Source: Heterodontus francisci (Eukaryota). From it: DNA of 64,000 nucleotides. The stretch is taken from the NCBI RefSeq assembly GCF_036365525.1, contig NC_090385.1, positions 73,020,065 through 73,084,064 on the forward strand, read 5' to 3'. The position numbers were made by a program, and so were the translations under genes. Shown piece after piece: positions 1 through 63,935 of the stretch (position 1 is its first letter; the number at the start of each line of letters is the position of its first letter). A model generated the notes under the pieces. The model searched no databases. It had not been told where the DNA came from and worked only from the letters and a program-made list of their open reading frames with translations.

Positions 1-600
1 GTGAGAATTATGCAATGTGCCAAACAGGCAGTTGAACAATAGTTGTTGAGGGTAACTATGAGGAATAGACATGACATTGCATTAAGGTAAGGGTGAGTAT
101 GAGTATGAGTAGAGGGGGATGGTTGCATCAGCAAGGTAAATTGGTGTGAGGAGTGATGTGCAGGAGTAGGCTTGGCAAGGCAGAGTGAGGGTGGGGGATG
201 GGGGGAGGTTGGGGTCATATTCACATGAGGATATAGTTGAATTTGCCATTGCACTCAACTTTCCGGCCCTGATTTGGCCATTGAACTGCTTTTGGCACTG
301 TATCCAGGAGCAAGCAAAGCACCACACTCCTGCTTCTAACCACCTCAGCGATCTCCAGCCACAATTTCTTGCTCTCTGAGACGGGCTTTTTTCTCCTATC
401 AGCAGAGTAGAGTCTCTCCCTGCAGGCACTTGCACAGCATCAGGTCTAGGGAGGCACTTGTGAACCGAGCTGCAGCCTTGCCACATTGGGAATCCATCAG
501 TACAGTTGCTTCCACAGTTCCCCCCACTGCAAAATCCTTCAGCTTTTCAGATCCTTTTTAAATAGTTCAGTTGAAATCGACTGTTCAATAGTTACTGGAA
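1..600 (-). mobile_element. Decayed Harbinger/PIF ORF2 (Myb/SANT-like) remnant; terminal part probably continues at 2915-3064
   Basis: ORF 82..486(-) contains SWIQCQKQFNGQIR, matching PWLQCCKEFNDLIR of the Harbinger ORF2 exon near 26700. A TIR-like end aaaattcaaccc lies at about 3053-3064, beyond the LINE insertion. Confidence 0.5.
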
Positions 601-611
601 CTCCCTTTCTT

Positions 612-2778
612 TTTTTAATTTTTTCTTGGGATGTGGGCGTCACTGGCTAGGCCAGCATTTATTGAATATCCCTAATTGCCCTCAAGAAGGTGCTGGTGAG
701 CCGTCTTCTTGAACCACTGCAGTCCATGTGGAGTAGATACACCACAGTGCTGTTTGAAGGGAGTTCCAGGATTTTGACCCAGCGACAGTGAAGGAACAGC
801 AATATAGTTCCAAGTCAGGATGGTGTGTGGCTTGGAGGGGAACTTGCAGATGGTGGTGTTCCCATGAACCTGCTGTCCTTGTCCTTCTAGTTGGTAGAGG
901 TCGTGGGTTTGGAAAGTGTAGTCTAAGGAGCTTTGGTGATTTGCTGCAATGCATCTTGTAGATAGTACACACTGCTGACATTGTGCGTCGGTGATGGAGG
1001 AAGTGAATGTTGAAGGTGGTGGACGGGATGCCAATCAAGCGGGCTGCTTTGTCCTGGATGGTGTCGAGCTTCTTGAGTGTTGTTGGAGCTGCACCCATCC
1101 AGGCAAGTGGAGAGTATTCCGTCACACTCCTGACTTGTGCCTTGTAGACGTGGACAGGCTTTGGGGAGTCAGGAGGTGAGTTACTCACTGCAGGATTCCT
1201 CGCCTCTGATTTTCTCTTGTCGCCATGGTATTTATATGGCTACTCCAGTTCAGTTTCTGGTCAATTGTAACCCCCAGGATGTTGATAGTGGGGGATTCAG
1301 TGATTGTAATGCCGTTGACTATCAAGGGGAGATGGTTAGATTCTCTCTTGTTTGAGATAGTCATTGTCTGGCACTTCTGTGGTGGGAAGGTTACTTGCCA
1401 CTTATCAGCCCAAGCCTGGATATTGTCCAGGTCTTGCTGCATTTCTACACAAACTGCTTCAGTATCTGAGGAGTCACGAATGGTGCTGAACATTGTGCAA
1501 TTATCGGCGAACATCCCCACTTCTGACCTTATGATTGAAGGAAGGTTATTGATGAAGCAGCTGAAGATGTTTGGGCCTAGGACACTACCCTGAGGAACTC
1601 CTGCAGTGATGTCCTGAAGCTAAGGTGATTGACCTCCAACAACCACAACCATTTTCCTTTGCACTAGGTATGACTCCAACCAGCAGGGAGTTTTCCCCCT
1701 GATTCCCATTGACCTCAGTTTTGCTAGGGCTCCTTGGTGCCATACTCTGTCAAATGCTGCCTTGATGTCAAGGGCAGTCACTCTCACCTCACCTCTTGAG
1801 TTCAGCTCTTTTGTCCATGTTTAAACCAAGTCTGTAATGAGGTCAGGAGCTGAAAGGCCCTGGCGGAATCCAAACTGAGCGTCAGTGAGCAGGTTATTGC
1901 TGAGCAAGTGCCGCTTGATAACACTGTCAATGACACCTTCCATCACTTTACTGATGATGGAGAGTAGACTGATGGGGCAGTAATTGGCTGGGTTGGATTA
2001 GTCCTTTTTGTTTGTACAAGACATACCTGGACAATTTTCCACATTTCCGGGTAGATACCAGTGTTGAAGTTGTAACTGTACTGGAACAGCTTGGCTAGGG
2101 GCGTGGCAAGTTCTGGGACACATGTCTTCAGTACTATTGTTGGAATGTTGTCAGGGCCTATCGCCTTTGCAGTATCCAGTGCCTTCAGTTGTTTCTTAAT
2201 ATCTCGCAGAGTGAATTGAATTGGCTGAAGGCTGACATCCGTAATGCTGGGGACTTCAGGAGGAGGCCGAGATGAATCATCCACTTGGCATTTCTGGATG
2301 AAGATTGTTGGAAATGCTTCAGCCTTATCTTTTGCACTGATGTGCTGGACTCCCCCATCATTGAGGATGGGGATATTTGTGGAGCCACTTCCACCAATTA
2401 TTTGTTTCATTAAACATGTTCATGACTGGATGTGGCAGGACTGCAGAGCTTACATCTGATCCATTGGTTGTGGGATTTCTTATCTATCGCATGTTGCTTA
2501 TGCTGTTTGGCACGCAAGTAGTCCTGGGTTGCAGCTTCACCAGGTTGACACCTAATTTTTCAGTATGCCTGGTGCTGCTCCAGGCATGCCCTCTTGCATT
2601 CTTCATTGAAGCAGGGGTGATCCCCCGGCTTAAAGGTAATGGTAGAGTGGGGGATATGCCAGGCCATGAGGTTGCAGATTGTGGTTCAGTACAATTCTGC
2701 TGCTGGTGATGGCCCACAGCACCTCATGGATGCCCAGCTTTGCATGCAAAATTGTTCAAAATCTATCCCATTAAGCAC
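612..2778 (-). mobile_element. CR1/Zenon-like LINE, copy A (5'-truncated; RT and 3' end)
   Basis: Frameshifted RT pieces KAIGPDNIP, MFADNCTMF and YKAQVRSVTEYSPLAW..IQDKAARLIG. The 3' tail reads gggcaattagg..gccagtgacgcccacatccc plus an A-rich end on the minus strand. Confidence 0.9.
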
Positions 2779-2913
2779 TGTGGATGTACCTATACTAGGT
2801 GGACTGCAGCAGTTCAGGCAGCTCATCACCGCCTACTCAAGGGCAATTAGGAATGGTCAACAAATGTTGGCCTTACCAGCGATGCTCACCTCCCAGGAAC
2901 AAATAAAAAAAAA
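2773..2913 (+). mobile_element. 3'-tail fragment of the same Zenon-like LINE family
   Basis: caagggcaattaggaatgg..ccagcgatgctcacctccc followed by an A-run; inverted relative to 620-750. Confidence 0.8.
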
Positions 2914-3109
2914 CTCATGCAGGTTGTCATCATGCCTGTTCATGCTAATTAGTTGGTAAAATTGGAAGTCAGATACAAATGTAGTGGCTGGAACTACTTC
3001 CGGTTTCCACATTCACTACTGGTCACTCCTGCTGCTAATGGGTCAAAGCATTAAAATTCAACCCATTGTATAAAAATTTGCCGTTCTGAACTGAAAACAA
3101 CCATCCCAT

Positions 3110-3875
3110 CCTAATCAATCACCTCTTCATCCTGTCTCAACAGAGCCAGAGTTCCGCCAGCAATAGTTTCTCCTCAATCATGTTGCCATCAGTTCCAGAG
3201 TTTCCCAAGGGTTCATCCTTGGCATGTCCTATTCCTCACATGCCCATCCTCAGTGACATTGCCATAGCAATAAGATCAGATTCCAAATGTATGCTGATGG
3301 CCCTGATTATTACCTCGCCTCCACTTAGCTCATCCCCATGACCACCACAATCACTACCAAACAGTTTGTCTGACATCAGGTTGTGGATGAGTCGGAATTT
3401 CCTCCAGTGTAACACTGGGAAAATTCAAGCCATCTTTTTTGACCTCTCACCAAAACACCACTTCCTTTCCAGAGATTCAAACATTTCCTGGATGCTTGTT
3501 CCGCTAAATCATTTCACGCAAGCTTAACATTCTGCTGGTTCCAGAGAAAAGCTTCAAGCCCATATCCTAAAATGTTACCTACGACCTTCGCACTATTATC
3601 CAGCTCCACCCATACTCTTATGTTATGTTGTTGAATTATTTTTCCACATTCTCATTACCTTTAAACTTAATTTCCATAATACCCACTTCACCTGCCTCTG
3701 TTCTTAAACTCCATCATCTCCTTACTTCTCACTTCACTTTTAAAAACCTTCCAAAATCCTAACTCTTTAGTTAATTCTTGGTATTTTACCACTATGACTC
3801 AATATCCATTACTTTCTTCCAATGTGAATTGCTTGAGACTTTTTTCCAAGTTAAATATACTAAATAAAAGCAAAT
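3110..3875 (+). mobile_element. Highly decayed L2 LINE RT/3' remnant
   Basis: Relic motifs cccaagggttcatccttggc (PQGS.LG-like) and tatgctgatg (YAD); degenerate L2-type tail near 3825-3875. Confidence 0.55.
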
Positions 3876-14439: not shown

Positions 14440-15990
14440 ATTGGTTAAAGACTGGCCGAGGACATCAGAAGGAGTCAGAGATGAATCATCCATTTGGCAC
14501 TTCTGGTTGAAGAAGATTGCAAATGCTTCAGCCTTGTATTTTGCATTGAATTGCTGGGCTCCCCCATCATTGAGGATGGAGATATTTATAGATCCTTCTC
14601 CTCTGGTTAGTTGCTTAACTGTCCACCTCCATTCATGAATGGATAAGGAAGGACTGCAGAGCATTTATCTGATCTATTGGCTATGGAATTTCTTTTCTCT
14701 GTCACATGTTGCTTCTGCTGTTTAGCATGCTTGTAGTCCTGCATCGTAGCTTCATCAGGTTGGCATCTCATTTTTCAGTATACCTGGTGCTGCTCCTGAC
14801 ATGCTCTCCTACAATCTTCATTGAACCAGGGTTGATCCCTGGCTTGATGGTAATGGTCGAGTGAAAGATATGTTGGACCGTGAGATTACAGATTGTGGTT
14901 GAATACATTTCTGTCGCTGCTAATAGCCCACAGCGCCTCATGGAAGCCCAGGTTTGAATTGTTAGATCTGTTCTGAATCTATCCCATTTAGCATGCTGAT
15001 AGTGCCATAAAACACGATGGAGAGTATCCTCAATGTGAATTCGGGAGTTCATCCCCACCAGAACTGAGTGATGGTCACTCCTACCAATATTGTCATGGAC
15101 AGATGCATCTGCAGCCTGTAAATTGATGAGGGCAATGTCCAGCATGTCTTTCCCTCATGTTGGTTCTCTCATCACCTGCCGCAGACCCAGTCTGGCAGAT
15201 ATGTCCTTCAGGACTTGGCCAACTTGGTTTGTAGTGATATTACCGAGCCTCTTTTGGTGAGGCAAGTTGAAGTTCCCCACCCAGAATAAATTCTGTGCCC
15301 TTGCTACCCTCAGTGTTTCTTCCATGTGGCGTTCAACATGGAGGAGCACTGATTCATCAGCTGAGGAAAGGTAGTAGATGTAAATCAGCAAGAGGTTTCT
15401 GTGCCCACCTGCTTCCATGAGACTTCATGACATTCAGAGTCAACGTTGTGAATTCCCAGGGACACTGCCTCCCGTGGATCTCTCCTGTTGGTGGAACAGG
15501 ACCTATCCATGGATTGTGATGGAGGAGTCAGGAGTGTTGGCTGAAAGGTATGTTTCTGTGAGTACGATTGAGTCAAGCTGCTGCTTAGCTAGTTTGTGGG
15601 ATATGCCTCCCAATTGTGGAACAAAACTTAGTTGTTAGTGAGAAGAACCTTGCAGGGTCGACTGGGCAGGTGTGCCTTTGTCATGTCCAAATCCGGTGCT
15701 GATGTCAATGCTGAAATGGTCCAGGCAGTTTTACTGTTATTATAGATTTCCGTAGTGGTTTTGATACAACTGATTGACTTGTGTGGCCAGTTCAGGGAGC
15801 AGTTATGAGTCAACCACATTGCTGTGGACTTGGAGTCAGATATAGACCAGACCAGGAGGTTTACTTCCCTAAAGGGCATTAGCGAACCAGTTGGGATTTT
15901 TTGACAATCTGCTCATTTCATGGTCACTATTATCGACACTAGCATTTTATTTCCTATTTATTTATTTAACTGAGTTTACATTGCTCCTAG
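14440..15990 (-). mobile_element. Zenon-like LINE copy B (5' leader plus endonuclease; 3' half lost)
   Basis: APE motifs RPCKVLLTN, WVGNFN and IGRSDHHSV. Leader 15780-15990 matches the SINE body at 46050-46280. Confidence 0.85.
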
Positions 15991-28928: not shown

Positions 28929-29560
28929 AACGTCTATTTGAGGACATCCTTGCAAAATTAGGTTGCCCTGAACACTGTTGATGCCAGGCCAGCTGTGTTC
29001 AGGAAAAGTGGTCTACATGTGGCCTACCAGCGGTTTTTAAAAGGAACCCTGTGGGCTGCCACCAATAAGGTAAGTTTTTTGAAATATACTGACTTGCATT
29101 TGGACCTGAGAAGTGCAGGAGTGCTGCACTGCAGTGCCAGCTCCTACTCAGTTCCCTCTGAATCAACACCCTCCCTCTCTCAATTGCTCCTCTTTTCTGA
29201 CCACTTTCTCCCCCCCTGCACCCCCCACCCCAAACCAAGACCGAATAGAGCTCTGCTGCTTGTGACACAGTGGTGCTAAATTAAAATTCCTTTTAGCAGT
29301 AGGGCAATGGTGGCATAGTGGTAATGTCACTAGACTAGTAAATCAGAGGCTGAGGATGTTCTGGCGACATGGCTTTAAATCCCACATGGCCGATGATAAA
29401 ATTTGAATTCAATCAATAAATCTGGAATTAAAAGCTAGTCCAATGCTAACTATTTTCAATTGTTGTAAAAACCCATCTGGTTCACTAATGCCCTTTAGGG
29501 AAGGAAATCTGCCATCCGTACTTGGTCTGGCTTGCATATGACTCCAGAGCCACAGCAATG

Positions 29561-29683
29561 ATAACTGCAGATTCTGGAAATCCAAAACAAAAAACAGAAA
29601 GTGTTGGGAACACTCAGCAGGTCTGGCAGCATTTGTGGAGAGAGAGATAGACAGAGTCAACACTTCAGGTCTGTGACCTTCCA
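29561..29683 (-). mobile_element. Short Penelope-related repeat with degenerate minimal hammerhead motif
   Basis: 9-bp TSD acagcaatg at 29552-29560 and 29684-29692; homologous to 48355-48455. Family and strand inferred from the motif. Confidence 0.6.
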
Positions 29684-30706
29684 ACAGCAATGCGGTTAAC
29701 TCTTAAATGGCCGAGGAAGTCCAAGAAAAGGAATGAAACCAGACAGACCACCCGGCATCAGCCTAACACAGCCATACTCACCGAATCATATGTCTCAGAT
29801 ACCACCATCAGCATCCCACTGGGGACAGGACATACCCGCCAGAGGTGGTGGCACAGTGGTATACAGACAGGACAGAGTTGCCCTGAGAGTCCTCAACATT
29901 GACTCTGGATCCCATGAAGACTCATGACATCAGATCAAACAGCGGCAAACCTCCTGCTGATTGGCATTTACTGCCCCCTACCCCCCTTGGCTGAGGTATC
30001 AGTACTCCTCCCTGTTGAACACCAATTGGAAGAAGCAGTGAGGGTAGCAAGATTACAGAATGTACTCTGGGTGGGAGACTTCAATGTCCATTCCCAAGAG
30101 TGGCTCAATAGCCTAAAGGACATAGCTGCCAGACTCGGTCTGTGGCAGGTGGTGAGGAAACCAACATGAGGAAAAAAACTACTTGACCTCATCCTCACCA
30201 GTCTACCTGTCCCAGATGCATCTGTTGATGACAGCATTGGTAGGAGTGACCACTGCACAGTCCTTGAGGAAACAAAGTCCCATCTTCTCATTGAGGATAC
30301 CCACCATCGTGTTGTGTGGCACTACCACCATGCTAAATGGTATAAATTTTGAACAGATCTAGCAAATCAAAATTGGGCATCCATGTGATGCTCTGGGCAA
30401 TCAGCAGCGGCAGAATTGATTTCAATCACAATGTGTAACTTCATGGCCTGGCATATCACCCACTCTACCATTAGCATCAAACCGGGGGACCAACCCTGGT
30501 TCAGTGAAGAGTGCAGGAGGGTACGCCAGGAGCAGCACCAGGCATACCAAAAAATGAGGTGTCAGCCTGGTGAAGCTACAACACAGGACTACTTGCATGC
30601 GAAACAGAGGAAGCAGCATGCGATAGACAGGGCTAAGCGATCCCACAACCAACAGATCAAATCTAAGCTCTGCAGTCCTGCCACATGTAGTCGTGAATGG
30701 TGGTAG

Positions 30707-31618
30707 TGTTACAACCGACCACTCCCGTCAAATCCCCCAATCAAGATAAATGATTCTGATTGTGGTGGGACCAAAGCACTGTTAATGCAATCCCGTCATT
30801 CCACAGATCAGCTAACATATCATTTAAAACTTTCCAAATTAAAGAAAGACCCAACCAAATTGTACCATCTATTAACCACCAACTGCCCCCCCCCCACCCC
30901 AAATGAGGCTAACCAAACCAGGTGTCTTTAAATCAACAAATTAACTCTTCAATTAAACAAACTCAATTCTTAAACACTATGAAGATAGAAACAACGAGAA
31001 AAAAATTAAAGTCCTTGCTAATCTACAGTCCAATGTTGCTTGAAGTCCTCACGGGATGTTGCTCAAAGTCCTCACAGGATGTTGCTTTCCTTCTCCAGTG
31101 AATTTCACCAATTAACGACTTGCAAATGCTTTCAACAGAATCAGTCTGACATTAGAGTTTTTAAGGGATAAAATATTGTCACAGTCTAACTTCCCTTCAA
31201 TTTAAATTACCACAGATCTCTGTTTTGGCTTGATTTTTTTTTGAATTTTGAAAGATAATAATTAAACAGATTAAAATCGTCTTCCTTCAGTTTAAATGGT
31301 TGAGAGCTCTTTTTCAGGTGTGCTCATCACATCCGTGTCCTCTGCGTCTGTTGTTCTGTTAGCACAAACTGTCTTCCTAACAGCCAGTTCAAAACTGAAT
31401 TGTAACAAATGTATCGCATCAAGCTTGTTCCCAGTGGCTATATCTATGGTAACGAGAATGCAACCTTTGAATCGCAGTCTCCAAATGGCTGTTTCTAAGG
31501 CAACAAGAATGCACCTTCTTAAAACTCCTAAGGCTTGCTGGCTCTTAAACCAATACTAATCCCTTGCAAGCCTTAAATGCAAACTGCATATTCCGAAAAA
31601 AACTACAGGACCATGACA
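30707..31618 (-). mobile_element. Solo LTR inserted in LINE copy C
   Basis: tgttac...catgaca; TSD gtag/gtgg (one mismatch); LINE sequence resumes collinearly afterwards. Confidence 0.8.
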
Positions 31619-32680
31619 GTGGATATTTGAACAACTAACAGGAGGTGAAGGCTCCACAAATATCCCCATCGTCAATGATGGGGCAGCCCAGCACATCAGT
31701 GCAAAAGACAAGGCTGAAGCATTTGCAACAATCTTCAGCCAGAAGTGCCGAGTGGATGATCCATCTCAGCCTCTTCCTAAGGTCCCCAGCATCACAGATA
31801 CCAGTGTTCAGCCAATCCGATTCACTCCACATATATTAAGAAACGGTTAAAGGCACTGGATACTGCAAAGGCTACGGGTCCTGACAACATTCCAGCAATA
31901 GTAATTACAAATGGTGCTCCGGAACTGGTGCTCTGAAGACTTGGCCCATAGCCAAGCTGGTCCAGTACATCTACAGCACTGGCATCTACCTGGCAATGTG
32001 GAAAATTGTGCTGGTATGTCCTGTGCACAGAAAGCAGGACAAATCCAACCCGGCCAATTACCACCCCATTAGTCTACTCTTAATTATCAGCAAAGTGATG
32101 GAAGGTGCCATCGACAGTGCTGTCAAGTGGCACTTGCTGAGCAATAATCTCAGTGACGCTGAGTTTGGGTTCCACCAGGGCCACTCAGCTCCTGACCTCA
32201 TTACAGTTCAAACATGGACAAAAGAGCTGAACTCAAGATGTGAGGTGAAACTGACAGCCCTTGACATCAAGGCAGCATTTAACTGAGTATGGCATCAAGG
32301 AGCCCTAGCAAACTGGAGTCAATTAGAATCAGGGGAAAACTCGGTTGGTTGGAGTCATACCTAGCACAAAGAAAGATGGTTGTGGTTGTTGGAGGTTAAT
32401 CACCTCAGTCCCAGGATATCACTGCAGGAGTTCCTCAGGGTAGTGCCTAGGCCCAACCATCTTCAGCTGCTTCATTAATGTCTTTCCCTCCATCGTAAGA
32501 TCAGAAGTGGGGTTGTTTGCTGATGATTGCACAATGTTCCCCACCATTCGCAACTCCTCAGATACTGAAGCAGCCCATGTCCAGATGCAGCAAGACCTGG
32601 ACAACATCCAGGCTTGGGCTAATAAGTGGCAAGCAGCATTCACTCCACACAAGTGCCAAGCAATGACCATCTCAAACAAG

Positions 32681-34949
32681 TATTATGGCCAAGGTGGAAG
32701 GAGTGCACTGTTAATTCAGTCCCACTTCTCCACGTCACAACATATTCTTTAATTTTTCCACTTTTTGAAACAGTCAATCGGATACACTATTTCCCCCCCC
32801 CCAGAATAGAACAGACTAACCAGGTTTCTTTACTGAACAACAAAATTAACATTTTATTGTAAGACAAGTCTTAACTAGTAATGAAGTAAAACAATAGCAC
32901 ACAGATCAAAATTTTAAATATCCACATTAAATATTTAAAACATCCTCTTTTCTACCTTTACCAACTTTTCAAGGCCCTTTTTACCTTACTCCCTTCATAC
33001 TCGCACTCACACACACAAAGTGATTTATGACTTTAACCCCATATAGGGACTAATCCAAATCAAGTGTACATCCCTATGAATCTCCTTTAATTAAGTTCAA
33101 ACTAAACAGATTTCGACAGAAACGTGTTTGGTTCTGAAGAACTGAACTGGTCTTCCCTCAAAGAAAGAAAACTAACAGAGAATATTACTATCTTTCGGAT
33201 AGCCTATTTTAAAAAATAATTATAGCCACATCATAAATATCCCAGATATTATAAGAGTATGGGAAACTCTCTTCAAAAAGTATCTCCCCACTTAAGGAGA
33301 CACAGAGAGGGGGTTCTTGTAATTGTGTACAGAATGCTACATGAGACAATTTATTAACTTTTATATATTTATTAAAGAATTGAACATGCAATACACTTTA
33401 AGTGGCTAAGAATACTACGGTATCAAATGTTACTAAGAGATGTAAAATATAATCTTACTTCTAAAATAGAATCCAAAAGTTCAACCTTGACAAAGTTACA
33501 GCAAAATATCTTAGAATATCCATCAAAATTCAAAGTAAACTGCTACCTAAAATTCCCCGAGGAAGCCTTCCTGCTTAACAAGACAAGATATTCTCAGTTA
33601 AGAGCAGAATTCTCTAGTCATGCAGTCAGCCATAGGTTGAGAAGCATTGTTGAGTAATTCAGTACTTCTGATTTTTTGATTCGAAACTCTCATGTTTATA
33701 CTGTTTCTAATCTATCATTTCATCTTTTGGAACGTAGGTGTTACCTTTCTGTGTGTATTTTTCCTTCTTTAATATCATTAGCTACCATTCCGACTGAATT
33801 TATTTGCTGGAAATTCCCTTCGCTTGAAGTTGTGAGCTTTTATCTGGTCAAAATGTTTGTCATTGGGTTTACTTGGCATCTGTTTTTATAAGTACCATTC
33901 CATTTTGTGATTTATCATCTGCAATTGTCTTTTTATGATACCTGGTTCCACCCTGTTGAGTCAGTCTATCTATATCACTAGCACTATCAACTAATTAGGC
34001 TTATAGGTATCAATACTGACCCCATTTAACGTGTGTCAGTGTTTTTCATCTTCTAATTCCATTGTAACAGAGACCTTGGAATGTATTTATTTTAACTTAG
34101 AAAGTGTTTCTGGTTCACATTCCATTGTAACAGGGATGTTTATGGATTTTTAATTCTGTCCTTAAAAGGGAATTTTAGCGAGTCTTGAAAACTGACCATT
34201 AATTCAATCTTTAATTCTAAAAGGTATAATGTATTAATTATATCTAAATTCTACCAAATTAAGCCTATTATACCTATGTTTCATCACACATACATATATA
34301 TATATATTCTTATACACAAATCGGTTAACTGCAAAATATAAAAGGATTTTTACATCAGAGCTCTGTGACAGACAAAAATAAAACACAAACAGATCACTTG
34401 CTCATTTTTTGAAGTAAACAGCAGGTGAGATATATTGTTCCAAACTAGCATAAAGTCCAATCTTCTGAGCACACAGATCTTTGGGATCTCAAGAATCTTT
34501 CAGAAATTAGTGTTCTTCAGGTGGCATTGAAAGTAATTTAGGAGACCTTCTTGAAATACAGAAATCAAGATAAATTCATGCTGGACTTCACAGGATCCTT
34601 CAGAGATATTGGAAAATGAAGCTGGGTTGTGGTCTTCTGTTCTTTCTTAACTTCTCCTCCAGGCTTGACGCACATACAGATTGACTTATGACCGACCAGC
34701 TTGGTAGTTTTAGCCCACCCAGGTGTGCTGTGCCTGCTACTAGGCTTGTCCAAACAAAGGAAAGTTGTCAATTTTCTGCCCCTGTTGCCATGGCTTCTGC
34801 CCTAAGCCTAGCCCGAACCAGGTGACAAACAGTAACACTGTTGCCAATCCAGCCCTCACTGTGCTCTTGATTAAAACATTTATTTAAGCTGAACAAAAAA
34901 TTCCTTTTTAAATTTTTTTTTGTTGACAGAACAGAGTCACTTCATAACA
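32681..34949 (-). mobile_element. Solo LTR inserted in LINE copy C, with a nested insert of about 1.27 kb (about 33020-34288)
   Basis: tattatg...cataaca; TSD caag at 32677-32680 and 34950-34953; left end homologous to 16293. The nested block is bounded by gtgat...atcaca inside a CA-rich tract. Confidence 0.75.
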
Positions 34950-36155
34950 CAAGAGTGAATCTAACCATCTCCATTTGATGTTCAATGGCATTACCACCCC
35001 TTACTATCAACATCCGGGGGGTTACCATTGAACAGAAACTAAATTGGATCAGCCACATAAATGCTGTGTTTACAAGAGCAGGTCAGAGGCTGGGAATTCT
35101 GTGGCGAGTAACTCACCTCTTGACTCCCCAAAGCCTGTCCACGATCTACAAGGCACAATCAAGTGGAATGGAATACTCTCCACTTGCCTGGATGGATGCA
35201 GCTCTAACAACACTCAAGAAGCCAGACACCATTCAGGACAAAGCAGCCCACTTGATTGGCATCCCATCCACCACCTTCAACATTCATTCCCTTCACCACT
35301 GATACAGAGTGACAGCAGTGTGTACCAACTACAAGGTGCACTGCAGCAATTCAAGAAGGCTCCTTTGACAGCACGTTTCAAACCCGCGACATTTACCACC
35401 AAGAAGGACGAGGGCAGCAGATGCATAGGAAAACCACCATCTGCAAGTTCCCCTCCAAGCCACACACCACCCTGACCTGGAACTATATTGCTGTTCCTTC
35501 ACTGTCTCTTGGTCATAATCCTGGAACTCCCTTCCTAACAGTACTGTGGTGTACCAACACCCCAAGGAGTGCAGAGGTTCAAGAAGGCAGCTCACCACCA
35601 CCTTCTCAAGGGCAATTAGGGATGGGCAAAAAATGCTGGCTTAGCCAACGATGCCCACATCACACAAGTGAGTAAAAGAAATGCCTGACCATATCCAGCA
35701 GGCATCTACACTTCATGTAAATATCAAATGGAGCTTTTGCGATTTTTTTTTTTGCACTGGTTTAAAAACCATTGTGCTGGAAGCCGACCCCGCCCACAAA
35801 GCTGGCCAAGCTCCCAGATCAAATTAATCACCATGATGATTTTCTGCTCATTGCACCCATTTGTGGGCCTTCTTTAAATTAGGATCCTTTTCGGAGCAAG
35901 GACACTAATAGGCATGTTTTAAAAACTTATAGATATTAAGTTATTAATTTACTAATGAACTGACTATTGGACACCAACGAAACTAGTAAATGATTCCATA
36001 TAGTTTTTAAAGTAATTTTCAAAGAGTTAAAATCAGGTTACTCAGTGTTGGTCAACTAGACATTCTGATTAAATATGTTTTTTTGTGATTCGCACATTTT
36101 TAACTATATTAAGCAAACTGTACCAGGTTACTATTGTTAAACATATCAAGTGTAA

Positions 36156-43373: not shown

Positions 43374-44944
43374 TGTCATGCTGGGCCTGCCAAGAATGAG
43401 GCATATTAATTTTGCCATCTGGGCATTAAATTTCAAATTGTTGCTGGAAAGAAGAGAAGGGCTGTTACAAGGGCTGCAAGATTTGGATGGAGGATATTTG
43501 CATACCAATATGGCCAAGAGAGGTTACTTCCTTTATCCAATTTAACTCACAATGGACTTTGAGCACCAGTCATTGAAGGTGAGGGAATTCAAATTTCAGG
43601 ATGACTGCTGGGATAGCCGAATCCACAAACAGATGTGGCCAGACCAGCTGGTCATGTGACTAGCCTGCTTGGCAACCTGTTTTTTCTGAATTGTACAAAC
43701 AGTTTGAACTGAGAAAGACTGTGTGCTCCTGGACTGAGAAGATCTCTCCTGTCTGCTCCTATCTCTTTCTCACAAGCCTCTGAATCCATTGAAGACACAT
43801 GAACCCCAAGAGAGAAAAGTCTGCTACAGCGAACAAGGTTTAAGAAGAATACTGGGCCCCAATGAAAAGCAAGATCTACGTACAATCATGGACTCTACAG
43901 TGAGCTAAAAGAACCATAGCAAAAACTCTTCAGATATTGCCTCAAACTTTTTCACTTTATTTTTCTTCTGCTCCTTTCTGTCTCTATTTGTATGTGTATA
44001 TCATGTATGCATGCTCGCATGGACACGTCGTGTATCCATAGGCATAACCCAAATTAGAATTTAAGTTCAAGTTTAATAACTTTCGACTTTTCTTCTTTAA
44101 ACCTAAGAAAACCTGTTTGTGCTGTTTTTTCGCCTTATAATTGGAAAGCGATGAACAAGGATTCACCAAGGGGGAGCTAAAAACATGATGTGTTTAAAAT
44201 TAAACCCTGTTACGGTAAGATCAGGTGAAGACTGAGAGGGACCCCTAGCTACCTTTCTCACATGATCATAACAAACTGTTACACCACGTGCCCACGCGAG
44301 CATGCAAATGTGATACACACATGCAAATAGAGACAGAAAGGAGCAGAAAAAAAATAAAGTGAAACAGTTTGTGGCAATATCTGAAGAGTTTTTGTTACAG
44401 TTCTTCGAGCTCTCTGTAGAGCCCTTGATTGAAGGTAGATCTTGCTTTTCATTGGGGCCCAGTATTCTTCTTAAACCTTGTTCACTGTAGGAGACTTTTC
44501 TCTCTTGGGGTTCATGTGTCTTCAATTGATTCAGAGGTTTGTGAGAAAGAGATAGAAGCAGACCGGAGAGATCTTCTCAGTCCAGGAGCACATAATCTTT
44601 CTCAGCTCAAACTGTCTGCACAATTCAGAAAAACCAGGTGGCCAAGCAGGCTAGTCACGTGACCAGCTGATCTGACTATGTCTTTTTGGGATTTGGCTAT
44701 CCCAGTAGTCATCCTGAAATTTGCGCTCCCTCAACTTCAATGACTGGTGCTCAAAGCCCATTGTGGGTTAAATTGGATAAGGGAAGTAACCTCTCTTGTC
44801 CCTATTGGTATGCAAATATCCTCCATCCAAGTCTGGCAGCTCTTGTAACAGGCCTTCTCTTATCCCAGCAACAATTTGAAATGTAATTTCCATATGGTGA
44901 AATTAATATGCTTCATTCTTGGCAGGTAGGGGCCCAGCATATCA
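43374..44944. repeat. Inverted pair of LTR-like sequences (long imperfect palindrome)
   Basis: 43374-44035 is the reverse complement of about 44283-44944. ORF-track peptides 43652..43885(-) and 44429..44662(+) are nearly identical. Flanked by ggatg on both sides. Confidence 0.9.
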
Positions 44945-45959: not shown

Positions 45960-46358
45960 GGTGAGACTGTGGTGTAGTGGTAATGTCACTGGACTTGTAT
46001 TCCAGAGGCCCAAACTAATGCCTTGGGGAAATGAGCTCAAATCCCACGACAGCTGGTGGAATTTAAATTCAATTAATTAATAAAAAAAGTCTGGAATTGA
46101 AAGCTAGTCTCAGTAATAGTACCATGAACATCGATTGTCGTAAAAACCCATCTGGTTCATGAATGCCCTTTAGGGAAAGAAATCTGCCATCCTTACCTGG
46201 TCTGGCCTACATGTGACTCCAGACTCATAGAAATGTGGTTGACTCTTAAATGCCCTCTACAATGATCTAGTAAGCCACTGAATTCAAGGGCAATTAGGGA
46301 TGGACAACAAATACTGGCCTTGCCAGTGACACCCACATCCCATGAATGAATCAAAAAA
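45960..46358 (+). mobile_element. Full-length tRNA-headed SINE sharing both ends with the Zenon-like LINE
   Basis: A box tggtgtagtgg; B-box-like gagctcaaatccc; body matches the LINE leader; tail caagggcaattaggg..cccacatcccatgaatgaatcaaaaaaa. Confidence 0.9.
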
Positions 46359-47109
46359 AGGAAACTGAACCCCAAGGTACTGGGAAGCTTTGCAAATTCA
46401 AAGAGTACCTGTTACATCTATGTGGGCACGTTGAGAAATCTCCAGAAGAATTCCTCCCAGGCAAAGCCACAGTAAATTAAGGAATAACTCTTAACATGGT
46501 TGACCCAGCAGGCACAAATGATGTAGCAGGTCGCCACAACATTCATTTTCATTAGGACTGATTGGGACAACTGACAAAGACAAATATTCTGAATCCTCTC
46601 AATCTATCACACAGTTCATATATTATTTGCTTATTTATTCTGTCAAATTGATCTATATAGTTTAAAACCTTTCTCCATCTAGCACATTACACCTTAAATC
46701 TATGTCACACTTTAAATATTTGTATAGCATCATTTTAATTGGTTTAAATAACCTCTGTCGGTCAACTGGAAAACAACAATCTGCAGCAGAACTAACCAAT
46801 CACTGAATTTTGATTTTCAAAACAACTAGTCTGAACTATCAGAAAATGAGCCCATCAAATCATTCCAACAATTTTCGTTGAGTGCTGGCTGATTATTTGC
46901 ACCTTAACAAAATCAAATTTAAGAAAACAAATAGACTTTGTTCATGCCTGCAAACCTACCAATATTTTGGGATTTCTTGTCTGTGCTTTCTTCTGCTGGG
47001 CTGTCCCTTCCAATTACTTTTCAGGCGTCTTGTCTGTACACAAAAGACTTGTGTATATGCCAACTTTGTGCCTGCATATTAGTGGATCTTCATGAACAAG
47101 TCATTAATC

Positions 47110-48354: not shown

Positions 48355-48455
48355 ATAAAAGCAAAAAATGCTGGAACCACTGAGCAGGTCTGGCAGCATC
48401 TGTGGAAAGAGAAGCAGAGTTAACGTTTCGGGTCAGTACCCCTTCTTTGGAACTA
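48355..48455 (-). mobile_element. Penelope-related repeat with degenerate minimal hammerhead motif
   Basis: Minus strand: ccaaagaag-gggt-actg-accc-gaaac-gttaac; homologous to 29561-29683. Confidence 0.6.
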
Positions 48456-50672: not shown

Positions 50673-53215
50673 CTTTTTTTATTCATTCTTGGGATGTGGG
50701 CATCACTGGCAAGGCCAGTATTTATTGCCCATCCCTAATTGCCCTTGAGCAGGTGGTGGTGAGCTCCCTTCTGAAGCTGCTGCAGTCCCTGTGGTGTAGG
50801 TCTTCTTCTTCTTTGGCCTCCTTGTCTCGAGAGACAATGGGTAAGCGCCTGGAGGTGGCCAGTGGTTTGTGCAGCAGCGCCTGGAGTGGCTATAAAGGCC
50901 AATTCTAGAGTGACAGACTCTTCCACAGGCGCTGCAGATAAAATTGGTTGTCGGGGCTGTTACACAGTTGGCTCTCTCCTTGCGCTTCTGTCTTTTTTCC
51001 TGCCAACTGCTAAGTCTCTTCGACTCGCCACGCTTTAGCCCCGCCTTTATGGTTGCCCAATTCTGACTTTATGATGGAGGGAAGTTCATTGATGAAGCAG
51101 GTGAAGATGGTTGGACCTATGACACTACCCTGAAGAACTCCTGCAGTGATCTCCTGGCTGAGATGATTGACCTCCAACAGCCACAACCATCATCTTTTGT
51201 GCTAGGTATGACTGCAACCAGCAGAGAGTTTTCCCCCAATTCCCATTAACTTCAATTTTGCTAGTGCTCCTCGAACTCACATTCAGTCAAATGCTGCCTT
51301 GATATCAAGGGCAGCCACTCTCACCTCACCTGTGGCATTCACCTCTTTTGTCCATGTTCAGATCAAGGCTGTAATGAGGTCTGGAGTTGAGTGATCCTGG
51401 GAGAACCCAAACTGAGCATCCATGAGCAGGTTATTGCTGTGTAACTGCCACTTATTAGGATTGTCAATGACAACTTCCATCGCTTTGCTGATGGTTGAGA
51501 GTGGACAGATAGTTCGGTAATTTGCCAGTTTGGATGTGACCTGCTTATTGTGGACAGGACATACCTGGACAATTTTCCAAATTGTCAGGTAGCTGTGAGT
51601 GTTGTAGTTGTACTGGAAAAACTTGGCTAGGGGCACGGCTAGTTCTCAAACACAAGTCTCCAGTACAACAGTGGGGATATTATACGGGGCCAGTGCCTTT
51701 GCTGTATCCAGTGCCTTCAGCTATTTCTTGTTCTAATGTAGAGTGAATCAAATTGACTGAAAATGGCATCTGTGAAGCTGGAGACCACAGGAGGAGGCCG
51801 AGATGGATCATTCACTCTGCATTTTTGGCTGAAGATGGCTGCAAATGTTTCAACCTTGTCATTTGCACTGACATGCAGGATTCCCCCATGATAGCGGATG
51901 TGACAGGACTGCAGAGCTTTGAACTGATCTGTTGGTTGTGGGATTGCTTTTCTCTGTCTAACACATACTGCTTCCGCTGTTTTACATGCAGGTAGTCGTG
52001 TGTTGTAACTTCACCAGACTAGCACCTCATTTTTAGGTATGCCTGATGTTGCTCCTGGCATGCACAACTGCACTCCTCATTGAATCAAGGTTAATTCCCT
52101 TGGCTTGATGGTAATGTTAAACTGAGGTATATGTCCAGCCATGAGGCTACAGATTGTGGTTGAATACATTTCTGCTGCTGCTAATGGTCCACAGCACCTC
52201 ATGGATGTCCAGTTACGAGCTGCTACATCAGTTCTGAATCTATCTCATTTAGCACAGGTAGTGCCACACAATACGTTGGCAGGTATCCTCAGTGTGAAGA
52301 CAGGACTTCGTCTCCGCAAGGACTGTGAGTGGTCACTCCTACCAATACTGTTATAGACTGATGCATCTGTGGCAGGTCCTTATGAGGACGATGTCAAATA
52401 GATTTTATCCTCTTCTGCACTATCTGCCGCAGGCTAGGTCGGACGGATATGTCCTTCAGGACTTGGCCAGCTTGGTCAGTAGTGGTGCTACTGAGCCACA
52501 ATTGGAGGTGGATATTGAAGTCCTCCACCCAGAGGACATTGTGAAGCCCTGATACCCTCAGCACTTCTTTAACATGGAGGAGTACTGATTCATCAGCTGA
52601 GGGATGGCAGTGGGTGGTAATCATCAAGAGGTTTCCTTGCCCATGTTTGACCTGATGCCATGAGACATCATGGGGTCCATAGTCAATCTTGAGTGTTCTC
52701 AGGGCCACTCCCTCCTGACCGTATACCACTGTGCCACCATCTCTGGTGGGTTTGTCCTGCCAGTGTGACAGGAAATACCCAGGGATGGTGATGGCAGTGC
52801 CTGGGACATTGGCTGGAAGGTTTGATTTGGTGAGTATGACTATGTCAGGCTATTGCTTTTCTAGTCTGTGTGACAGCGCACCCAATTTTGGCACGTCCCC
52901 AGAGGCTCCTCAGGCGGTATTTGCAGGGTTGACTGATCAGGGGGTGCCTTTGTTGTTTCTGGTGCCTAGATTGATGCTGGATGGTCTTTTTCAGCTTTCT
53001 ATAGTGATGTGATACAACTGAATTGCTTGCTTGACCATTTCAGAGGGCAGTTAAGAGTCAACAACATTGCCGTGGGTCTGGAGTCACATGCAGGCTAGAC
53101 TGTGCAGATTTACTTCCCTAAGGGTACTTGTGAACCAAATGGGTTTTTATGATCATCCAGTAGTTTCATGGTCACCATTATTGAGATGAGATTTTATTCC
53201 AGTTTTATTATTTTA
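50673..53215 (-). mobile_element. Zenon-like LINE copy D (leader, EN, RT, tail; internal deletion at the RTE insertion)
   Basis: Leader at 53010-53215; EN motif WVEDFNIH; RT motifs QFGFSQDHS and LDIKAAF; tail at 50673-50800. Confidence 0.88.
50801..51058 (-). mobile_element. RTE-clade LINE 3' fragment
   Basis: Minus strand open frame ..FICSACGRVCHSRIGLYSHSRRC (RTE C-terminal zinc finger); (GAA)n tail. Confidence 0.88.
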
Positions 53216-53309: not shown

Positions 53310-53460
53310 TTTTTAATGGGATGTGGGCATCACTATCTAGGCCAGCATTTATTGCCCATCCTTAATTGCCCTTGAACTGAGTGGCTTGTCAGGCCATTTC
53401 AGAGGGCATTTAGGAGTCAACCACATCACTGTGGGTCTGGAGTCACAGGTAGGCCAGACA
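53310..53460 (-). mobile_element. 3' half of tRNA-headed SINE (5' half at 59722-59960)
   Basis: Reverse complement matches 46200-46358, including the junction ccactcagtt|caagggc. Confidence 0.85.
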
Positions 53461-59721: not shown

Positions 59722-59960
59722 ATGACCAGCTAAGGATGGCAGATTTCCTTTCCTCAAGGACATTCGTGAACCAAATGGGTTTTTACAACAATCAACAATG
59801 GTTTCAGGGGCACTATTAAACTGGCTTCTAGTTCCAGATTTATTATTTGAATTCAAATTTCACCGTTTGCTGTGGTGGGATTTGAGCCTATGTCCTCAGA
59901 GCACTAGCCTGGGCTCTGGATAACTAGTCCAGTGTTATTACCCCTGCGCCACCACCGCCC
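59722..59960 (-). mobile_element. 5' half of tRNA-headed SINE
   Basis: Minus strand: ggtggcgcaggggtaataacactggactagttatccagag..ggctcaaatcccaccac; continues at 53460. Confidence 0.85.
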
Positions 59961-59982
59961 CATGAGCCACATAAGGAGATAT

Positions 59983-63589: not shown

Positions 63590-63935
63590 ATGATGCAGTT
63601 AGTTATGAGTCCGTGATAACACCCTTGCTTATAAGACAGAATGTCGTGTGTTCAAGCCGCATTCTGGAGACCGAAGCACAAAATCTAGGCTAACTCTTTG
63701 GTGCAATACTTGAGGGTGTGCTGAAATGTCTGAGGTGCCATCTTTCGGATGAGACGTCAATCAAGGCCCCATCTTCCCTCTAGCTGGACTTAAAAGATCC
63801 TGTAACACAATTTTATAGAAGAAAAGAAGAGCAGGAGAGTTCTGTCCATTGTCCTGGCCAACATTTACACCCCAACCAACATCACTCAAAAGCTGATGGT
63901 CTGGTTATTATCACATTTCTATTTGTGGGACTATG
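63590..63935 (+). mobile_element. DeuSINE (SacSINE1-like), interrupted at its 3' part
   Basis: Deu-domain-like tctttcggatgagacg..aaaagatcc..gaagagcaggagagttct..tgtcctggccaacattta..caaccaacatcac. Confidence 0.8.

Follow-up and report, generated by a model that had tools for sequence, protein, structure and literature searches.

A shark LINE that begins with a tRNA-derived, SINE-type head and is probably transcribed by RNA polymerase III

Short interspersed elements (SINEs) of the SINE2 type may join a tRNA-derived head to the 3′ tail of a long interspersed element (LINE), and bipartite LINE derivatives combine the 5′ end of a LINE with its 3′ end (Kojima 2018, PMC5786205). In that Repbase survey, only RTE and Vingi 5′ regions occur in SINE bodies, the LINE partners are assumed to be transcribed by RNA polymerase II, and a LINE, RTE-1_DAn, is said with its relatives to contain a tRNA-like sequence. 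Two shark systems are described: SacSINE1, a Deu-SINE of 463 bp with a 330-bp Deu domain and an L2-type tail (PMC5499810, PMC2746220, PMC3747384, PMC4824008, PMC10468316), and HE1/HER1, a V-SINE pair made up of a tRNA-derived shark SINE and its LINE partner (PMC3747384), HE1 being defined by an 80-bp V domain and a HER1 tail. Polymerase III promoters are also reported (PMC10886601) for Cassandra, Helenus (311-1263 bp) and Ajax, which are TRIMs, miniature retrotransposons with terminal repeats. Here we describe a LINE that carries a tRNA-derived head at its own 5′ end, found in a 64-kb stretch of shark DNA (contig NC_090385.1; "the window" below), and a SINE of about 400 nt that accompanies it. 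The pair resembles the bipartite derivatives in its tRNA head, its LINE 3′ tail and a SINE built from both LINE ends; in those derivatives the tRNA head sits on the short element, whereas here it sits on a coding LINE. RTE-1_DAn is a possible precedent for a tRNA-like sequence in a LINE, but belongs to the RTE clade. SacSINE1 and HE1/HER1 are, like our SINE, tRNA-derived shark SINEs with LINE partners, SacSINE1 being 463 bp against about 400 nt. Cassandra, Helenus and Ajax likewise acquired a small-RNA promoter; unlike the element described here, they are short, non-coding and of the long terminal repeat (LTR) type.

The fusion of head and LINE is real. A first-pass annotation of the window had reported the same SINE-like leader running into an APE endonuclease in three copies (B, C and D) and had proposed an autonomous, single-frame retrotransposon of about 3.3 kb. 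All three copies do have the leader, but B and D start at positions 112 and 115 of the unit defined below, without the tRNA head. Copy C has the head, with the A box tggcatagtgg as had been noted, and its leader runs into a frame for the endonuclease and reverse transcriptase (RT). We searched the 6.0-Gb source-genome assembly three times with endonuclease DNA only and counted non-self matches. Thirty of 39 matches in the first search (20/29 and 10/10) extended into the tRNA head, as did 19 of 29 in each of the second and third searches; two or more truncated loci are shared by two of these sets. The remaining matches were 5′-truncated, ending inside or just past the leader, and none had any other common upstream sequence. 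Copies across the genome support the proposed autonomous element. Of the outcomes that the annotation had named as refuting it, the two that could be checked, junctions differing from copy to copy and a consensus reaching further upstream, did not occur.

Twenty-six full-length copies of the young subfamily, each differing by 3.0-4.2% from the majority base of the columns, define the unit; four of the 30 full-length copies, of older types, were left out. It is 3,301 nt long and has a sharp 5′ end: columns agree at 0.19-0.42 over the 20 positions preceding the first base, and at 0.69-1.0 over the 20 that follow. The copies begin exactly at the 5′ end of the tRNA head, their flanks are unrelated, and the junction of head and LINE is the same between copies. 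In four of four runs from four other organisms, contigs bridge the leader-ORF junction (ORF, open reading frame) with at least 31 letters on each side. Head and ORF alleles of a young and an old subfamily co-vary (r 0.92; 82 of 87 copies concordant, five not), a correlation weakened by partial circularity, as the old-subfamily (B) set was picked by eye; the endonuclease-only searches are unaffected. A search directed at the old subfamily gave mostly young and intermediate copies. The copies are otherwise those of a LINE, being dispersed, often 5′-truncated and free of LTRs, with a fixed A-rich 3′ end, and thousands of candidate matches were recovered from the source genome in a first pass. Target-site duplications (TSDs) enclosing head and tail, for which the annotation had suggested a test, did not rise above control in the 26 copies (best match mean 3.8 nt, against 3.4 nt for mismatched flanks).

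The head has an A box at unit 11-21 and a B box at unit 75-85, as expected at the 5′ end of a tRNA-derived SINE (SINE2), and both boxes are nearly unchanged between subfamilies while adjacent sites vary. It had been called Thr-AGT-like. ARAGORN, which finds no tRNA anywhere in the window, does call tRNA-Thr(AGT) of 89-95 nt with a long extra arm on better-preserved heads from elsewhere. The best local match among source-genome tRNA genes, however, is tRNA-Leu (z about 6), with Thr(TGT) and Lys slightly lower, in a comparison set of Leu, Thr(TGT), Lys and Ile genes that holds no genuine Thr(AGT) or Ser genes. A tRNA-Leu match fits the long extra arm, and we dropped the Thr(AGT) ancestry even though the loop reads AGT. 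Rfam gave no match at curated thresholds, the heads yielding weak tmRNA-clan matches only, and the alignment of heads showed no tRNA cloverleaf consensus and little covariation. Heads called tRNA-Thr(AGT) by ARAGORN may inflate tRNA counts in shark genomes. Separately, a tandem array with a 3,050-bp period in the source genome (C34:18727223-19007247) contains tRNA-Leu and tRNA-Ile genes, with anticodons TAG/CAG varying among its units.

Behind the head, nt 308-3235 of the unit form its one open frame, 975 codons long, with no other frame exceeding 123 codons; both endonuclease and RT lie in it. On sister copies, Pfam PF03372, PF14529 and PF00078 score above cut-off. No ORF1 exists in the 3,301 nt, as had been anticipated. 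A SINE is short and non-coding, a description that suits the 400-nt derivative only. The 3′ untranslated region (UTR) is 66 nt long and has a stem-loop (z -2.3 on locus L121). From the endonuclease on, the subfamilies differ at 91 synonymous and 50 non-synonymous codons (20/13 in the endonuclease, 71/37 after it), a pattern that indicates purifying selection on the ORF in the source elements. As a side observation, several gene predictions from sharks (P0005, P0030, P0031, P0034, P0037), among them aldo-keto reductase, ERI1 and JMJD8, contain pieces of this ORF, by mis-annotation or exonisation.

How this frame begins differs from what the annotation had proposed, namely an in-frame start at the ATG of a gcaATG motif in the leader. 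Counted as far as the endonuclease Lys, the spacing of this ATG is divisible by three in two of the 26 copies (modal value 161 nt, 13/26), and we reject it as the start codon because it is out of the endonuclease frame in the other 24. The in-frame readings in copies B and C are the product of insertions and deletions, the ATG of copy C being the second copy of a 9-nt insertion duplication. In the young subfamily gcaATG opens an upstream frame of 19 codons. An ATG 29 nt downstream lies in the endonuclease frame in 19/26 copies. In 20/26 young copies GCC-TAG comes directly after this in-frame ATG, with CAG (three), GAG (two) or AAG (one) at the TAG position in the others, and TAG also follows the in-frame ATG-GCC in 12 of the 17 old copies with a base there. 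In none of the four other organisms, whose reads mix SINE and LINE, did any change of the UAG codon amount to 15%. The T of UAG is variable in 6/26 copies, above most sites, but 62 non-CpG columns vary equally and we draw no conclusion from it. No readthrough-promoting structure was found behind the UAG (z +0.96).

A test that the annotation had not proposed, of T-runs on the sense strand against controls, favours the promoter reading. In vertebrates, four T residues are the minimum for termination by polymerase III. The enzyme halts at T-tracts on the non-template strand (PMC12358842). The sense strand of the unit has no run of four or more T (T4), against 15 A4, 13 C4 and nine G4 runs (P 0.006, base shuffle), and T4 is absent from the older subfamily too, which has four TTT in 3,228 called columns; both subfamilies are in this respect free of internal polymerase III terminators, as expected of a tRNA-derived SINE. 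TTT, the most depleted non-CpG triplet, occurs six times in the whole unit where 27 are expected. The ORF contains four TTT, all Phe codons, against 15.2 ± 3.2, and none of 3,000 synonymous shuffles gave as few. At codon borders, a T that would create TTT was used in 0/23 and 0/13 chances, against 40/177 and 153/478 elsewhere. Windows with four T in 5 nt number one where 11.0 are expected, while A, C and G have no such deficit. The protein has a Phe content of 1.8%, against 2.7-4.8% in seven relatives.

Other LINEs show this depletion of TTT far less. In the source genome, a young CR1 has 56 TTT (61.2 expected), 11 T4 and three T5 runs, and a Tx1/L1-like family has 29 TTT (33.6 expected), four T4 runs and one T5. 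We also compared 65 related metagenome RT frames from 80 loci, leaving out 15 with no clean open RT frame of at least 450 codons. The ratio of TTT to base expectation in our element, 0.18, is the lowest of the 66 frames, the 65 others spanning 0.53-2.12, and 64 of those 65 have at least two T4 runs. Transcription of the entire unit by polymerase III best accounts for two features combined: a tRNA promoter placed exactly at the 5′ end and, maintained in both subfamilies, a strand-specific loss of terminators across 3.3 kb. As far as its sequence can tell, RNA polymerase III likely reads the LINE along its full length, starting from the internal tRNA-type promoter.

Several points weigh against this interpretation. 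According to PMC10886601, polymerase II serves non-LTR elements, and the processivity of polymerase III sets a limit to the length of SINEs. The absence of T4 alone is weak under synonymous shuffling of the ORF (2.07 expected, P 0.08); the strength of the terminator argument lies in TTT. An older CR1 of the source genome is also TTT-poor (27 against 38.9, P 0.001); its 1.9 kb hold two T4 runs, one of them a T5. Among the metagenome RT frames, L280 (54-2790, 912 codons), from an unrelated host, has no T4 where 5.4 are expected and a TTT ratio of 0.53, on a contig that lacks the 5′ end. Poverty in T is therefore shared by elements outside this family. The data from other organisms are assembled contigs, among which run X15 carries a presumed RNA label. 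None of the 26 full-length copies is intact, the longest open stretch being 549 codons, and the 42 codons before the endonuclease, where the mapping is less sure, show no sign of selection (two synonymous against ten non-synonymous differences). Translation poses its own difficulty, as the leader contains nine ATGs and the frame has no ordinary start: beyond the TAG, no Met occurs in frame until residue 210, which lies behind the catalytic GDFN (179). With the in-frame ATG stopped at TAG and the next Met past GDFN, making the endonuclease would require readthrough, reinitiation or initiation at a non-AUG codon. Starts that do not depend on AUG are known in L1 ORF2 and R2, and R2 also shows that an uncapped retrotransposon RNA not made by polymerase II can be translated; unlike the present LINE, R2 lacks a promoter and is co-transcribed by polymerase I.

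Three other explanations were weighed. The head could be a fixed part of the LINE and the transcript still be made by polymerase II, from a promoter in the leader or by read-through from host genes; the head would then be a captured 5′ end serving as an RNA structure or boundary, and the T-poverty would reflect avoidance of splice acceptors or of U-rich decay signals, or strand composition. Polymerase II is the usual mode for LINEs (PMC5786205, PMC10886601), a capped RNA would be easier to translate, and one control CR1 is itself partly TTT-poor. The same explanation has to accommodate copies that start exactly at the tRNA 5′ end amid unrelated flanks, A and B boxes that hold steady while neighbouring sites change, and three other LINE families of the same genome that retain T4 and T5 runs. 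Two AATAAA motifs within the first 350 nt of the unit would also be awkward for a polymerase II RNA. We consider polymerase II transcription unlikely. A division of labour, in which polymerase III RNA is copied while the protein comes from occasional polymerase II transcripts of family members, would fit the T-avoidance, and no translation would be required of an uncapped RNA that carries nine ATGs upstream and a stop in frame. Selection on the ORF (91 against 50) would be easier to maintain if the protein acted on its own RNA, and cis preference is established for L1; such a division seems to us improbable.

The remaining alternative denies the fusion itself: head and LINE would be neighbours by accident or by targeting, either because a SINE inserted upstream of LINEs or because a site-specific LINE inserts at SINE position 323. 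Site-specific non-LTR elements exist, and the LINE, being the 5′ part of the SINE followed by the ORF and the 3′ part of the SINE, formally resembles an insertion into a SINE. Yet the junction is constant in all copies and linked to the ORF subfamily, and the last ORF codons and the stop sit within the tail that SINE and LINE have in common. A site-specific element should leave truncated copies at one target, but none of 27 5′-truncated, tail-bearing pieces has the leader, the SINE 5′ half, in front of it, which excludes targeted insertion into the SINE. We reject both accident and targeting, whose probability we regard as very slight.

The fusion also gives a simple account of the accompanying SINE. 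Thirty-seven SINE-type joints connect unit 323 with about 3211-3222, within the last ORF codons, and the SINE of about 400 nt corresponds to the LINE unit with 324-3218 deleted. Judging from these joints, the SINE is most simply an internal deletion of the LINE that kept promoter and tail and would use the LINE enzyme. We infer the direction from LINE to SINE, since a single internal deletion suffices, while the reverse order requires a LINE to have captured the 5′ part of a SINE exactly to the start of the tail. A loose end in another organism, E, suggests a second joint about 25 nt earlier in the tail, as expected if deletions occurred more than once. Apart from these joints, a longer internally deleted derivative, with unit 445 joined to 3005, was seen once (L151); other single internal deletions do occur.

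SacSINE1 was our first lead for this SINE and was dropped on length, and because another family of the genome probably fits it, rather than on a reference alignment. No reference sequence was found in the searched text and supplements of PMC5804259, PMC4824008, PMC11481361 and PMC3234267. The source genome has two other tRNA-SINE families, one longer than 420 nt with only a 16-nt B-box match to ours and one with a different head. The first of them, which lies at window 63675-63928 and at about 965-1489 of locus L065 and has a body unrelated to that of the derivative SINE, is probably SacSINE1, and the second probably HE1.

The annotation had suggested an RT phylogeny. In a quick tree of 26 RTs, holding no named reference sequences, the RT groups with insect-type CR1-group and metagenome elements, including a moth-like protein (36-43% identical, SH-aLRT 99), apart from the vertebrate-type CR1 of the source genome (33% identity) and the Tx1/L1-like controls. 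The LINE may belong to CR1-Zenon. CR1-Zenon-like LINEs are listed for the whale shark by RepeatMasker class in bioRxiv 10.1101/443036. Single-ORF LINEs of the CR1 group resemble ours in having endonuclease and RT in one frame, a short 3′ UTR with a stem-loop and no TSD; ours differs in its A/B-box head, its lack of T4 and its lack of an AUG start. ARAGORN detected no tRNA in any of 49 related metagenome loci scanned, many of which may be incomplete at the 5′ end. Protein fragments from the sharks Heptranchias, Heterodontus, Cetorhinus and Rhincodon, one of which may be the source species, share 70-86% identity with the element, and these matches place the family in both main shark lineages. 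No ray or chimaera appears among the named protein matches, which is weak evidence of absence. A full-text literature search, with Repbase, Dfam and subscription journals outside its scope, returned no description of a tRNA-headed or polymerase III LINE. Also in the source genome, loci L284-L308 form a young CR1 family that is of lesser age than the tRNA-headed LINE; its copies are 98% identical, and their column majority gives an open RT frame of 964 codons.

The family, a shark LINE with a SINE-type head, is real, old and abundant, and by now apparently inactive. For its active past we infer the polymerase and the route of translation as follows. TFIIIC would bind the A and B boxes of the head, and polymerase III would read all 3.3 kb because terminators had been selected away, and would stop where the flank offers its first T-run. 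Translation of this uncapped RNA would do without scanning to an ordinary start codon and would use either UAG readthrough within AUG-GCC-UAG or a non-AUG codon ahead of the endonuclease. Bound to the 3′ stem-loop, the protein would insert the RNA through target-primed reverse transcription, in which the promoter would be copied as well. That all of this holds together, as an autonomous coding retrotransposon transcribed over 3.3 kb by polymerase III, translated uncapped through stop readthrough or a non-AUG start, kept in sharks from a time before their main lineages diverged, not described so far, and giving rise directly, through internal deletion, to an abundant tRNA-SINE, we give an even chance. 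If so, it would be a natural intermediate between SINE and LINE and a natural polymerase III messenger, and would break the rule that LINEs belong to polymerase II while polymerase III serves only short, non-coding SINEs. It would also provide a natural case in which terminator avoidance has shaped a long coding RNA even in its choice of codons and amino acids. A tRNA-SINE could then originate in one step, by deletion from a LINE already carrying the promoter, and the element would offer a testable model for translation of uncapped polymerase III RNA.

In the window itself, copy C is a decayed copy, and the related pieces are collected in Table 1. Copy C lacks unit 387-498, about 110 nt of the endonuclease N-terminus.

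Table 1. Copy C and related pieces in the window (positions in the window; "unit" refers to the 3,301-nt LINE unit)
Feature	Position	Strand	Remarks
Copy C, decayed LINE copy	29302-35681	+	interrupted by three later insertions
tRNA-derived head of copy C	29302..29395	+	A box tggcatagtgg 29311-29321; decayed B box ~29371-29383; alignable to heads of full-length copies
Leader (5′ UTR) of copy C, common with free SINE	29396..29560	+	unit ~95-272
Later insertion, short dispersed repeat	29561..29692	.	9-nt duplication at 29552-29560 / 29684-29692; second copy repeats the ATG of the first-pass annotation (29690-29692)
Leader end, basic N-terminal stretch and APE endonuclease of copy C	29693..30704	+	in-frame ATG 29707; PF03372 and PF14529 on sister copies
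Later insertion, solo-LTR-like, TG...CA ends, class not assigned	30705..31618	.	
Reverse transcriptase region of copy C	31619..32680	+	unit 1498-2563; PF00078 on sister copies
Later 2.3-kb insertion, LTR-like, class not assigned	32681..34948	.	short inverted ends and 4-nt duplication
ORF C-terminal part of copy C	34949..35619	+	stop codon 35617-35619, within tail common with SINE
3′ UTR of copy C, 66 nt with stem-loop, then A-rich end	35620..35681	+	
Copy B, older subfamily	14460..15969	-	unit 112-1664
Copy D, older subfamily	51056..53213	-	unit 115-2394
Copy A, 5′-truncated	606..2783	-	unit 1120-3301
Derivative SINE, full length	45960..46359	+	unit 1-323 and unit 3219-end
Head and leader fragment	59724..59961	-	unit 1-239, cut by another element
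Derivative SINE, 5′-truncated copy	53313..53459	-	

The two LTR-like insertions in copy C have TG...CA-type ends, short duplications and few matches among the collected loci. The short dispersed repeat inserted in its leader has 39 matches there; this repeat of about 125 nt, which has many matches and was inserted with a 9-nt duplication, is seen at 29561-29683 and again at 48357-48437. The window also contains an inverted repeat of 650 bp, its arms 90% identical, at 43386-44034 and 44280-44926.

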